From: Eledone cirrhosa
Lineage: Eukaryota
Assembly (NCBI GenBank): GCA_964016885.1
Contig: OZ024746.1
Span: forward strand, 66,960,001 to 67,024,000
Length of the DNA stretch: 64,000 nucleotides
Direction: 5' to 3'
Shown: positions 9,152 through 39,098 of the stretch, one piece after another
How positions within the stretch are numbered: the stretch's first letter is position 1
Layout of the letters: every line of letters begins with the position of its first letter
Notes under the pieces: generated by a model
The model's database searches: none
The model's input: the letters and a program-made list of their open reading frames with translations, nothing else
What the model was told of the DNA's origin: nothing
Position numbers and translations under genes: made by a program

Positions 9152-9352
9152 TAACAAAGAAGGTGTGGTAAGATACCAGGTGAACCATAACGCACCAGAG
9201 TACTCGATACTTAGGGTAGCAGAGTGGGTAATAAAAATAGAGTGAGGACCCCGGCGGCTGAGCCTGGCCGTTTCGACAGCTAGATCCGAACTCAGATGTT
9301 CGGATCTAGCTGTCGAAACGCCCGGACGTCGGCCGTCGGGGTCCTGACACTT
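9152..9352. mobile_element. Family B fold-back PLE-like tail with HHR 3' half
   Basis: Starts at (TA)n with taacaaagaaggtgtggtaag. Hairpin apex gtttcgacagctagatccgaac-tcagat-gttcggatctagctgtcgaaac. Homologous copies at 24.1, 31.6, 32.0, 38.9 and 63.2 kb. Confidence 0.85.
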
Positions 9353-9489
9353 TCTCCCTCTCTCTTTCTATCTCTCTCTCCCCTCTCTCTCATTATATAT
9401 TTTGGAACAATCGACTTTCGTCAAATCGGACCGAGGAAACAATGTTTCCGTTGGTCTTTCCAATTGCTAATACTATCTATCGGTCGCAA

Positions 9490-9619
9490 CTCCAGGTAGA
9501 ATGAGCAACATGAAATAAAGTGTCTTGGTCAAGGACATAACGCATCGCCTGGTCCAGGAATCGAACTCACAAGCTTACGATTGCGAATCCAATTCTCTAA
9601 ACACTCAGCCACACGCCTT
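9490..9619 (-). mobile_element. tRNA-derived SINE, family 2
   Basis: Minus strand has GGCGTGTGGCTGAGTG (A box), GAGTTCGATTCC (B box) and TGTCCTTGACCAAGACACTT (core-like). Homologous to 50984-51128. Confidence 0.75.
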
Positions 9620-10699
9620 CATTATATATATATATATATAAACATATGTCTGTGTGTGTGTGAGTTAGTATGTCAGTTAGTTATATAGGTGCACGGTGAG
9701 AAGCACTCGATGTTATTAGGTCTTTGCATATATAAACTCGCATATCTCATGAGATATCGGGGAAGAGGCGGGCCTCAGTCATTAAGATCGATATTGAAAA
9801 AAATTGTAATATGACAAAAATGTTTACATATATGCCGCAATATTGATTTCGATCCTATATATATATATATATATATATATATGAAATAAATATTTATAAA
9901 TGCATATATATATAAAATAAATATATATACATGCGCGCGTGTGTATATGTCATTTCGTTATTGGATTGAGTGAAATACATACACACACAAAAGCACTTAC
10001 ACAGAGACACACACACTCACATATATATAGAGAGATAGATATATATATAGATACATAGATAGAGATAGATAAATATATATATATATATATACATATATAG
10101 ATAGATAGATATAGATAGATAGCTAGATAGATAGATATGTCCGTGGGTGATTGACGGATGAGTGAAAATATTAACCAATACCGAAGTATAGTATGAACAT
10201 TCCTTTTATGATGTCTAAGTGTTGAGTCTTGTTACTCTAGATTCTTAACTGCGCTCTCACAGAATCATCCTTTATATATACTGCTTCTTCACATGTATAG
10301 AGTACTACACTGATTTGTGGTCTTCCCAGTCTCGGTATGGCATACTTTATACACACACACTACATAAACACACACACGCAGACGCACACACACACACAGA
10401 TATATGTATATGTGTGTGTGTGTGTGTGTATGTATGTATATATATATACATACATACACACGCACATACACACACACATGCAGACGTACACACACACACA
10501 CATGTAAATATATATATATACATACATACACGCGCACATACACACACACACATGCAAACGCACACACACACACATATATATATATATATATGTGTGTGTG
10601 TGTTATGTAATTCCGAAGAAAAGGCGAAGGGAAAAAGAGTGCTCTATGTATAGAAGAGAGCTATTTAATTAGAAAGTGAACAACACAATATATAACTAC

Positions 10700-10757
10700 T
10701 CCATTACCAAAGGTTTCAGGACCCTAGACAATACGTCTGGATCGTTCCTCAGACAGA
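10700..10757 (-). ncRNA. Type I hammerhead ribozyme (mirror copy)
   Basis: Minus strand reads TCTGT-CTGAGGA-acgatccagacgtattgtctagggtcct-GAAACCTTTGGTA-ATGGA. Confidence 0.7.
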
Positions 10758-10769
10758 GAAGATAACATC

Positions 10770-10835
10770 TCTGTCTGATGAACGATCCAGACGTATATTA
10801 ACATTGTCTAGGCTCCTGAAACCTTTGGTAATGGA
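10770..10835 (+). ncRNA. Type I hammerhead ribozyme
   Basis: TCTGT-CTGATGA-acgatccagac..gtctaggctcct-GAAACCTTTGGTA-ATGGA. Stem I is 5 bp with G-U pairs, stem III is ACC/GGT, and the triplet is GUA. Confidence 0.72.
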
Positions 10836-36109: not shown

Positions 36110-36232
36110 TAAGAAAATGCGAAGTAGTTTCAGAATCTAAAGTCCGTTATTGATAAGGCCGTGATACGTATTTTAATGACGACAGTGGTCACGCGATTCC
36201 GCGTACCCAGTGCTATGATCTCATCAGATAGC
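36110..36232 (-). ncRNA. Family E tail with degenerate hammerhead
   Basis: Minus strand reads GCTAT-CTGATGA-...cgtcatt-AAAATACGTATC-ACGGC. Stem III is the palindrome ATACGTAT, and GAAA is mutated to AAAA. Confidence 0.55.
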
Positions 36233-36785
36233 TTCTTATATAATAAGGTTGCGTTCTCGAGACTATCCAAGTAAAAACGACAAGAGAACGGGAAAAAAAT
36301 GATGTTCTTCTAGCCTTCACCCGTTCCCCTGTCAGCCCCAAGTCTCCTCCACGGCTTTGCGCAGGCGCAAATGTGAAGGAAGTTGACCATCTAACTACCA
36401 TCCAAAATACTACGAAACTAGCCCAGGCAAGCACACCCCGCCTACCGATCTCCCTCATCCCGCGCCGGTGAGGTGACACGGTCACATGGTATACACCAGC
36501 CACTCAGTTATAGTTTACTATCAGTCTAGCAGCAGCCATCCAAAACTTTGCGGTAGTGGAAGAGTATAAGCTTTAATGGGTTTTAATACTACCCCTAATT
36601 TATACTTGGACAATCGAATTGACCATCACCCGCGAAAAGAATATGAACTTAATTTGGATAATGAAAATTTGGATGCTGAAAAATCTGTCTGAAACAATAT
36701 AATTTCTATAGTTTCCATTAGAATTATATGTTGTACAACATTTATATATGGTGATTTCAGGCGCCTTTCTGTGACTGTAATTTAA

Positions 36786-37158
36786 GTGTTTCTACGTTTG
36801 GCACAAGGCCAGCGTTTATCCCAGTGCATTACTGGTACTTTATTTTATCGACCCTGTAAGGATGAAAGACAAAGTTAACATAGGTGGGATTTGAACTCAG
36901 ATTGTAAAGGCCCGTAACTCCATACTGCAAAGCATGGCGTCTGACCCTCTAACGATACTGCCAAATACTATAATGGCAGAATGTCAGCAATTGAGAAGTC
37001 GGTTGGTGCTTTATTTTATTGAACCTGTTAGGGTGAAAAGCAGTTTGACATCGGCAGGATTTTAATTTGGAATCTAAAGACCGAGAAATAATACTAATAA
37101 TACTATTGAGCATTTAAGCATTTGCTCGACATTCTAATGATGCTGCTAATCCACTGCC
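36786..37158 (-). mobile_element. SINE family 1 (36786-36964) plus an older copy (about 37003-37158)
   Basis: Consensus match. Confidence 0.8.
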
Positions 37159-38138
37159 CTATAAATGTACTATATTAATAACCTCACTGTTGTGATAAAT
37201 CGATATGATGCTGTTAGAATATCCAGTTAAAGAAAAAAAACATAACATAAAGAGTACTACAAAATACGTGCAGAGAAAACATTAATGTTATTCTATCAAC
37301 TAACGATCTTCTTTTTCTTTTTCTTTTTTTTTTCATTTCACGTTTGAACTAGTTTAATATATCTCTTACATGTACAAGTATCTATATTTTCCGGTGTAAT
37401 AAATGAAGCCATGGCGTGATTTACTCATATAGAGTAACTTCACATTTACACTATATAATGATAAAAATATATTTCCTGGCTTAACAACTCATTCGACTTT
37501 ACAGGCTGGAATTATACCCCATTGCTCGACACCTGAAATCATGAATGTTCATTATCTACGATTAAATATATAGGTATGTGTGACATTGTCAATATATTCA
37601 GTCAGGTAATTGTTCCACACACAGTCACTCAGAAACACACACACACACACACACACACACACACACACACACACACACACACACACACATCTATTAGCAG
37701 CTGTGCATTATGGTTTATGTGGAAGGAGATACGCACAGAAAGTAATGCATATTTATAATATATTCTCTAGTCTATAAACTACTTAATGTTATTCGAAAAA
37801 ACTATTCCTAAGTCCTTTTTGGTAAGAGTTATAAGTTTTCATCCCATCAGTGCAATGCATTAGTGAAAGTCTGTAGCACAAGATCGAAATAAACAGAAAA
37901 TAACGAGTGCTATTGTAAAACACAAAGAATAGATGTATGAATATTACTGCCAAACCATATGTCATGAATATTTATTAGCCGAATATGAATCATCCTCAAC
38001 GACAAACAGAAAATATATTGTTTTCATCAAGTGAAAATGTTTATCATGAACACTTTATACTACCAAGAGATATTACACATAAAGGGGAATAATATATTTC
38101 TAATGTCAGTAACACGAACAAGCAAGGACAAGTAAATA

Positions 38139-38325
38139 ATAATTGTTTCTACTTTGGGCACAAGGCCAGCAATTATCCCAGTGCATTACTGGTACTTTAT
38201 TTTATCGACCCCGTAAGGATGAAAAGCCAAGTTAACCTCGGCAGGATTTGAACTCAGATCAGAAAGGGGCGTAACTCTGTGCTGCAAAGCATGTTGTCCG
38301 ACTCTCTACCGATACTGCCAAACCA
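38139..38325 (-). mobile_element. SINE family 1
   Basis: Consensus match. Confidence 0.88.
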
Positions 38326-38873
38326 CAAATGATATATGGGGTGAATATGATACTGGAACTGTAATGCATATCATATTGGAAGATCTGTGCATCATTGTCA
38401 TAGTCCAGTTTTGGAAACGATTTCAAAACAATATTGTGAAAGAAACATTTCGACATAGCATCTAAAATTGTAGCAATAGACGTTGACTCGACTAATATCA
38501 TGAACCATCTAAATGATATATTATGTTTCAAGAAAACTTATTTAGCACTCCGTCGTACTTCTTATCTGATATACGATGTTCACAGTGATATTTTTCTTGT
38601 GATGTTTGACCTTGTGTCACATTGAGATATCTTCATTGACACCATTTCAAAAACCCAAGTAAAAGGATAAAGTTTGATTGTACATTAATTGCTGGATGGT
38701 TTCCAGCATAAATGTATTTCTCCTTGTTCGGATATCGTTTGAAATTGCTCTCTAAAATCTATGTCAGTTTGTTTGTGATCGGCTTAAATTTCGAGAAAAT
38801 TCATACACACATATACATGCACATACAAACACGCACGCATACATGTATGTAAACATATATATACATACACATA

Positions 38874-39098
38874 TAACGAAGAAGGTGTGGTTAGATACCA
38901 GGTGTACCATAACGCACCCGATTACTCGATACTTAAGGTAGTAGAGTGCGTAATAGGAAAAGAGTCAGGACTCCGACGGCTGAGCTCCGGCCGTTTCGAC
39001 AGCTAGATCCGAACGAAACCAGCAGGGCTGCTGGCATTGTTCGGATGTAGCTGTCGAAACGGCCGGAGCTCAGCCGTCTGAGTCCTGACTCTTTTCCT
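38874..39098. mobile_element. Family B fold-back insert
   Basis: About 60 bp near-perfect arms (aggaaaagagtcaggactc..gatccgaac and gttcggat..gagtcctgactcttttcct). Contains GAAACGGCCGGAGCTCAGCCGTC. Confidence 0.88.

Follow-up and report, generated by a model that had tools for sequence, protein, structure and literature searches.

Paired two-site priming as the probable origin of palindromic insertions of a Penelope-like retrotransposon in Eledone cirrhosa

The closest described relatives of family B, a palindromic repeat of Eledone cirrhosa reported here, are Penelope-like retrotransposons, for which the origin of the inverted repeats and one-sided tail, and hammerhead ribozyme cutting in vivo, are stated open questions (PMC8557442, PMC4209133, PMC11167929). 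Within this group, the Hydra clade is defined by RWK and DKT motifs, a CxCx5C linker, CxxC and CxH motifs, the lack of CCHH and insertion into (TA)n; its members, such as Hydra-1_Obim (Craig et al. 2021), share these traits with family B (the first motif as RW(K/R)), together with a C-terminal GIY-YIG domain, a hammerhead in the repeat and an inverted 5′-truncated copy (PMC8557442). Penelope and Pen2a_Av likewise have an adjacent inverted repeat, a one-ended tail and a promoter with an initiator-like motif within the repeat (PMC3846280, PMC2377424). The Anolis Poseidon element PAc (Frangieh et al. 2024) also primes internally at two sites, which defines its ‘tail’, and has both strands cut and extended, AT-rich targets and a repeat hammerhead (PMC11167929), and the hammerheads of the Cercyon elements of Schistosoma show the same U3-A8 core covariation, a palindromic loop III and motifs lying close together on opposite strands (PMC4209133). 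Here, we analyse family B in a 64,000-nt stretch of E. cirrhosa DNA (the window; assembly GCA_964016885.1, contig OZ024746.1, positions 66,960,001 to 67,024,000 of the forward strand) and across the surrounding 3.0-Gb genome, which is rich in microsatellites. We find that family B insertions have two fixed outer ends, that the two arms of a palindrome carry one end of each kind, and that their inner ends peak at two places, at −5..+8 and at +42 of the repeat. On balance, we favour a mechanism in which each palindrome consists of two complementary DNAs (cDNAs): either nicked strand of a (TA)n target primed one of them, at +140 or at +61 of what was probably one RNA, and both ran off the 5′ end of that RNA before being joined.

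Positions in the repeat are counted from +1, the A of TC/TT-AGT, which lies 18 nt 5′ of the hammerhead GAAA (+19..+22). The 3′ strand of stem II occupies +8/+11..+18, and the predicted hammerhead cut follows +41, so that +42 is the first nucleotide 3′ of it. The short arm ends on the outside at +61 (CCTAT, then (AT)n) and the long arm at +140 (CCTTCGTTA, then (TA)n). Genome-wide, the 3′ 30-mer at the +140 end has 20,512 exact copies against 0 for the reversed control, vastly more than chance would give, the +61 outer ends number 17,330, and subfamily B2 has 1,340 pattern matches; copies were located by pattern search, words in the last 62 nt being too common for DNA similarity search. The copies in the window are as follows.

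9152..9292, minus strand: long arm +1..+140 of subfamily B2, 90% identical to the natural B2 copy L270, with (TA)n at its outer end
9298..9353, plus strand: inverted short arm +2..about +57, B2, after a 5-nt spacer and with a (CT)n flank
24106..24157, minus strand: lone short arm +10..+61, B3-like, without a long arm
25101..25184, plus strand: old, decayed family B fragment, 73% identity
31551..31597, minus strand: short arm +15..+61, subfamily B1, with (AT)n at its outer end
31598..31732, plus strand: long arm +6..+140, B1, with the hammerhead 3′ half (GAAA at 31611, predicted cut after 31633)
31948..31964, minus strand: short arm +45..+61, 17 nt
31965..32099, plus strand: long arm about +5..+140 of a decayed B3-like copy
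38874..39025, minus strand: long arm −10..+140, B2
39028..39099, plus strand: short arm −10..+61, B2
63215..63264, minus strand: 5′-shortened long arm, about +91..+140, its inner few bases uncertain
63266..63285, plus strand: short arm +42 (the predicted ribozyme cut)..+61, without sequence in common with its long arm (compared with the natural copy L149)

An earlier sequence-only reading of the window had described palindromes with differing apices at 9152, 31551 and 38874. All three are present, with long/short arm starts at +1/+2, +6/+15 and −10/−10, respectively, as mapped on natural untruncated copies, and it was right to take them for independent events of a retroelement with a type I hammerhead. 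The stem III string that it gave, GAA-ACGGC-TTGAGCTCA-GCCGT-C, lies at 31611-31633, and its statement that no copy keeps the CUGANGA half of the ribozyme is true for every copy within the window. The copies at 9152 and 38874 belong to a diverged subfamily, B2, with other loop sequences. Two further breaks, reported at 24115 and 31953, hold in part: the first is the lone short arm +10..+61 on the minus strand, and the second is a long arm from about +5 on the plus strand, the 17-nt inverted arm beside it having been overlooked, as was a sixth copy at 63215-63285. The breaks had been placed inside stem II; the arms in fact pass through its 3′ strand into loop II.

Family B is almost certainly the terminal repeat of a Hydra-clade Penelope-like retrotransposon, as judged by motifs and predicted fold. 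[quoted passage not shown] The predicted fold of this ORF (predicted local distance difference test score 92, from an 88-sequence alignment) has telomerase reverse transcriptases as its top two PDB fold matches (E 4e-8), and its motifs are YRDD, RWR, SDKT, a CNCPDRSSC linker, CNLC and CKH, with no CCHH. GIY-YIG is recognized by motif only (NVIY...AYIG at the C-terminus, with one Cys between IY and YIG); a related fragment in the window matched the Pfam GIY-YIG family below the cut-off, and Pfam and PDB sequence searches of the 719-amino-acid ORF gave no match. The Hydra motifs are common to most of 120 relatives at about 40% identity, and a metagenome scan for relatives confirmed none. A pseudo-long-terminal-repeat, tandem and inverted arrangement with a 79-nt tail on one arm was seen in L121, L126 and L291. 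(AT)n borders the short-arm end in nearly all of 59 pairs, the (TA)n on the long-arm side having been selected for. The unit length of 3,617 nt exceeds the Hydra-typical <3 kb.

Other element classes fit less well. The Naiad, Neptune and Poseidon clades were ruled out by domain order and motifs. A non-LTR retrozyme, with tandem units that each hold a complete hammerhead as defined in a study on tandem arrays (bioRxiv 10.64898/2026.07.22.740005), was rejected, most copies being half-ribozymes in inverted pairs. A miniature inverted-repeat transposable element (MITE) with fixed terminal inverted repeats and a constant interior was discarded on three grounds: the apex varies, the arms are unequal and a reverse transcriptase-encoding parent exists. 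That the palindromes are fixed MITEs or an assembly artefact is scarcely credible to us: the outer ends are indeed constant, but apices differ copy by copy, the same ends bound ORF-bearing copies of up to 3.7 kb, and the same +61/(AT)n junction occurs in 56 and 72 separately assembled contigs of two public runs (X1 and X2, which are one sample and may be the window's own), observations that contradict both versions.

The window also holds remnants of other elements. Broken ORFs of other Hydra-like elements, with ~35% identity to the family B protein, lie on the minus strand at 266-1589 and 43759-44834, the latter downstream of a hammerhead at 46543. A minus-strand fragment at 44841-45561, with CxxC...C and CxxC...YFG motifs, resembles a Neptune-type Penelope endonuclease, and fragments at 56301-57560 (minus strand) and 59886-60512 (plus strand), the second adjoining an (AAT)n run, resemble restriction-like-endonuclease non-LTR retrotransposons.

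The pairing of the arms was assessed from a short-gap count of short-short pairs and from sampled arms. The long-arm sample comprises the first 100 exact matches of the 3′ 30-mer on contig C1, a selection blind to the 5′ end, and the short-arm sample the first 100 matches on the same contig; breakpoints were set by a joint split of both arms. At least 75 of the long arms have an inverted +61 partner (59 by joint split, 7 more, and 9 distant) and one has a +140 partner, the rest having none or being unresolved. Conversely, 93 short arms are paired with a +140 arm and none with a +61 arm, while 4 lack a partner and 3 are unresolved. Searched with equal geometry, short-short pairs gave 14 matches (about 9 sites) against 852 for short-long pairs. 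All 28 long head-to-head pairs likewise have one +140 and one +61 end, two of these ends being slightly altered; one of 29 loci (L279) was left out of this set as a later duplication. In the breakpoint mapping, no outer end was seen at the TAT sites +83 and +103. Since the target is symmetric, one-of-each pairing is most simply explained by one RNA that offers one site of each kind. The arms also match in type: their subfamilies disagree in 5 of 69 cases (two of them misregistered), against 67% at random, and all 25 head-to-head pairs that read through +1 have the same core variant (by eye). Read-through upstream of +1 occurs in about a tenth of insertions and tends to affect both arms (the 25 pairs are among 100 listed), as expected if a downstream repeat or a circle serves as template.

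The relative reach of the two arms bears on whether one was copied from the other. Among 107 pairs, 19 have a short arm that extends to +8 beside a long arm that gets no further than +19, and 2 show the opposite; the arms do not overlap at all in 9 pairs, a tenth listed case being an internal deletion. In the long pairs, the +61 arm is more than 100 nt longer in 14 of 28 and the +140 arm in 8 of 28 (by eye). Snap-back self-priming as the earlier reading had it is disfavoured by the excess of 19 over 2 and by the 1-nt spacers at 5 of 13 junctions described below. Fold-back at the RNA end, in which the +140-primed cDNA runs off the RNA end at +1 (or +42) and then self-primes, +61 being set by the endonuclease cut or by TAT microhomology and later one-sided deletions reshaping the centre, would fit the matching arms, the one-of-each pairing, the coincidence of both arms at +42 and palindromic spacers such as AAAATTTT; the tail has been suggested to come from endonuclease resolution of an intermediate (PMC8557442). 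This fold-back would nevertheless need a later deletion in each of those 19 short and 14 long pairs, and it cannot yield C4/G4 arms 0-1 nt apart (five one-base and five zero-spacer cases), lone short arms (4 of 100, and window 24106), mixed-subfamily arms or the full-length copy L121, which ends at +61. We regard it as unlikely.

Four family B palindromes form a tandem array with a period of about 276 bp, probably a later duplication (L003-L005 and L013, C19:20441831-20442844), and secondary inverted genomic duplications (L279, C1:23351000-23357000; L011:620-963) mean that palindromes also arise independently of the element.

That breakpoints are not uniform along the element was implied by the earlier reading and is borne out, with the peak elsewhere. 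Of 100 long-arm inner ends, 8 lie upstream of −5, 55 at −5..+8, 7 at +9..+19, 7 at +20..+41 and 23 at +42..+115, a stop rate per nucleotide of 0.147 at −5..+8 against 0.003-0.0095 elsewhere. Short arms behave alike (71 of 100 stop at −6..+8), and 18 of the 30 B2 arms that reach +7 stop at −1..+2. The loop II of this subfamily is of unrelated sequence and its boundary is unchanged; all that the subfamilies have in common at that place is T(C/T)AGT, which resembles an initiator. Initiator-like motifs lie in Penelope repeats (PMC2377424, PMC3846280). In addition, three copies have A runs of 13-17 nt at +1, and three tandems jump from +1 inward, to +254 (twice), about +960 and about +289. We infer that +1, which lies within hammerhead loop II, is probably the transcription start, or RNA 5′ end. 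A TATA box at −29, proposed from B1 as a common feature, was dropped as it is not in B2. One insertion (G000:C1:27009440-27010173; L119/L265) has two rounds of +1..+254 ahead of its final arm, as though one short RNA, or a circle, had been travelled twice.

Two other accounts of the boundary were weighed. The earlier reading proposed that reverse transcription stalls at stem II and that the cDNA snaps back on that hairpin. Apices 5-30 nt upstream of GAAA would suit this, and the stop rate at +9..+19 (0.0095) is about twice background. Yet only 7 of the 70 arms reaching +9..+19 stop there, and 55 of the remaining 63 stop beyond stem II, at −5..+8; stem II cannot form in an RNA that begins at +1; and the weak inner hairpin of loop II varies among subfamilies while the boundary stays the same. 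The breakpoint map thus contradicts this proposal, to which we give very little credence, and the accompanying idea that ribozyme structure sets the integration geometry is unsupported because the same boundary occurs in B2 with its unrelated loop II. Alternatively, +1 could be a processing site: TTTTCATTTAG reads as a 3′ splice acceptor, and cis- or trans-splicing would then define the RNA end, with the integration geometry unchanged. A pyrimidine run with YAG is present in B1, B2 and B3 (by eye), and in Drosophila virilis an intron end maps into the Penelope hammerhead (PMC4209133). No common leader or exon precedes +1/+3 in the 100 junctions listed (by eye), and many arms retain the AG and upstream T's; splicing at this site seems distinctly improbable.

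Untruncated copies show the complete ribozyme, ACCCC-(U/C)UGA(G/U/A)AA-G..CGGCUA-loop-UAGCCGUC-GAAA, in 4,822 matches. The first 100 of these all have A at position 8, with U (80) or C (20) at position 3 (by eye); copy L112, with G8, is the one such copy noted. CUGANGA is therefore missing for two reasons, truncation and the U3·A8 core, and the full-length copies that the earlier reading anticipated do have the stem I partner, ACCCC, upstream, with U3·A8 or C3·A8 in place of the CUGANGA core. Across 16 distinct natural copies chosen from 39, 93% of stem cells are paired (slid controls, 25-59%), and three stem II pairs are changed on both sides between subfamilies. The minimum-energy fold is hammerhead-shaped in 3 of 5 copies, and the features of a type I hammerhead (three helices, G10.1-C11.1, GAAA and NUH) are present. 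Compared with the Cercyon hammerheads (PMC4209133), stem III of family B is a stable 5-6 bp rather than minimal, and the putative start site splits the ribozyme.

Two other hammerhead-like sequences lie in the window, whose Rfam scan returned microsatellite noise only. A second family forms a divergent pair at 46450-46610 (minus strand) and 46770-46915 (plus strand), with a long loop II and a palindromic stem III (ACUAAUUAGU); its core is the canonical CUGAUGA, mutated in the plus-strand copy, and 17 distinct, mostly untruncated copies with covarying stem II, and no Rfam match, were found among the examined sequences. A small motif at 27821-27870 (plus strand) reads TTATC-CTGATGA, a short stem II and GAAAC-TCCAGAGT-GATAA.

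The second peak of inner ends coincides with the predicted ribozyme cut. Of the first 62 of 852 matches to very short palindromes, 19 have both arms ending at +42 (29 of 100 listed, by eye), the search pattern limiting visibility 5′ of +40. At the 25 junctions with inserted bases, in which microhomology cannot blur the end, +42 accounts for 30 of the 50 arm ends, with +40 and +41 unrepresented; the two arms coincide at +42 in 13 junctions, out of the 17 where either arm ends there. In these 13, the inserted bases start with A in 8, and the 5 with a 1-nt spacer are too tight for self-priming. Were the enzyme to stall at the base of stem III, ends would be expected at +41, and independently in the two arms. 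Scaled up, there would be about 250 sites with both arms at +42 (1-1.5% of insertions) and about 50 mixed ones. Arms ending exactly at the predicted cut suggest that the ribozyme works in the living animal. These junctions also bear on whether one RNA or two served as template. Twin priming on two RNAs of one source locus, held in an asymmetric complex with one enzyme at +140 and the other at +61, would dispense with strand displacement and fit mixed-subfamily arms and junctions of a long arm at +42 with a short arm at +1, and the palindromic loop III could pair two RNAs (PMC4209133). It sits poorly with both arms ending at +42 so much more often than one, and if the two RNAs are free, nothing explains why short-short pairs are nearly absent; we think this quite unlikely.

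In the one-RNA mechanism that we favour, an endonuclease would nick both strands of the (TA)n target; of the two 3′ ends, both with TAT microhomology, one would prime at +140 and its counterpart at +61; synthesis of both cDNAs would continue up to the 5′ terminus of the RNA, mostly +1 but in some cases +42; and a few bases would be added at the cDNA ends before these are joined. About 1-1.5% of insertions would derive from RNA whose 5′ end is the ribozyme cut. Because both arms cover +1..+61, the second enzyme would have to displace the first cDNA. A jump by the enzyme to an RNA 3′ end, sometimes made after run-off, would account for the head-to-tail tandems. R2 is known to displace strands and to jump from end to end (PMC6895275), and both abilities are assumed for family B. 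An in vitro precedent from another clade has two internal start sites with both strands cut and extended (PMC11167929). A transcript from +1 would hold half a hammerhead at its 5′ end, and so could not cut there, and its downstream repeat would fold the whole ribozyme. A broader reading is possible but less likely than not: paired two-site priming of one RNA would be the normal route of integration for this family, explaining the inverted repeat and one-sided tail of such elements; the start in loop II would keep the ribozyme inactive at the 5′ end of the RNA and let it act at the 3′ end; +1..+41 would be a terminal repeat for retrovirus-like strong-stop transfer; and the +42 class, if this is true, would document for the first time in a genome that a Penelope hammerhead cuts in vivo.

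Several observations weigh against this account. The samples are first matches on one contig and are biased to young subfamilies. Within the range visible for both arms, the asymmetry in reach is only 9 versus 2 (p=0.065), and long perfect palindromes are unstable, so that one-sided deletion after insertion could mimic a longer short arm. Matching arms would also be expected from gene conversion, or from two RNAs of a single source locus; a few insertions have mixed-subfamily arms (L014, L027, C1:25459465), which need two templates or conversion, and a long arm at +42 joined to a short arm at +1/+2 (about 11 of 100 listed) needs two templates. The TATA-like box (−29 in B1) is missing from B2 and changed in further copies, and the boundary motif also resembles a splice acceptor. 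The stem II covariation comes from two B2 copies and hence reflects few events, an Rfam search of an untruncated copy gave no hammerhead match, and the C3·A8 cores (20 of 100) should impair catalysis; as that subfamily kept transposing, an optimal ribozyme may be dispensable. Finally, PAc showed no strand difference in start site in vitro and no RNA reads at its ribozyme cut (PMC11167929).

Family B offers an intact ORF and about 20,000 young insertions that follow rules at the level of single bases (a +140 end goes with a +61 end, and run-off is at +1 or +42), so that the questions named at the outset can be addressed in population genomes and in vitro. For repeat annotation, such 200-bp palindromes are retrotransposon products rather than MITEs. 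In relation to described systems, the Hydra-1_Obim protein is collinear with the family B ORF by eye (PMC8557442 supplement), and three words of the family B repeat were absent from that supplement as searched. The family B unit is 3.6 kb and not <3 kb, with >20,000 copies, and its hammerhead differs from those tabulated for the Hydra clade, all C3-G8 with a loop II of <=10 nt, in having U3·A8 and a loop of about 33 nt (PMC8557442). Unlike that of PAc, the family B tail is 79 nt and lies wholly upstream of the ORF (ATG +232); family B uses one site per strand and leaves a genomic cut footprint, features without counterpart in the PAc in vitro and RNA read data (PMC11167929). In contrast to Penelope and Pen2a_Av, most family B insertions are about 200 bp with two arms, and there is no conserved TATA box and, by eye, no RGACGTGY downstream element (PMC3846280, PMC2377424). 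Earlier publications already cover the inverted copy and the tail, the hammerhead and the U3·A8 core, as well as internal priming and insertion into (TA)n; strict one-site-per-strand pairing, a start site in loop II and a genomic ribozyme-cut footprint were not found in our literature search, outside of which lay subscription papers and several supplements. The nearest mechanistic parallel is L1 twin priming, reportedly described by Ostertag and Kazazian in 2001, in which the second target strand is said to prime internally on the RNA, giving an inverted arm with microhomology or inserted bases at the joint. There, the outcome is reportedly a minority one, variable in position and with non-overlapping arms, whereas in family B it is the rule, with both sites fixed near the RNA 5′ end and arms that usually overlap.

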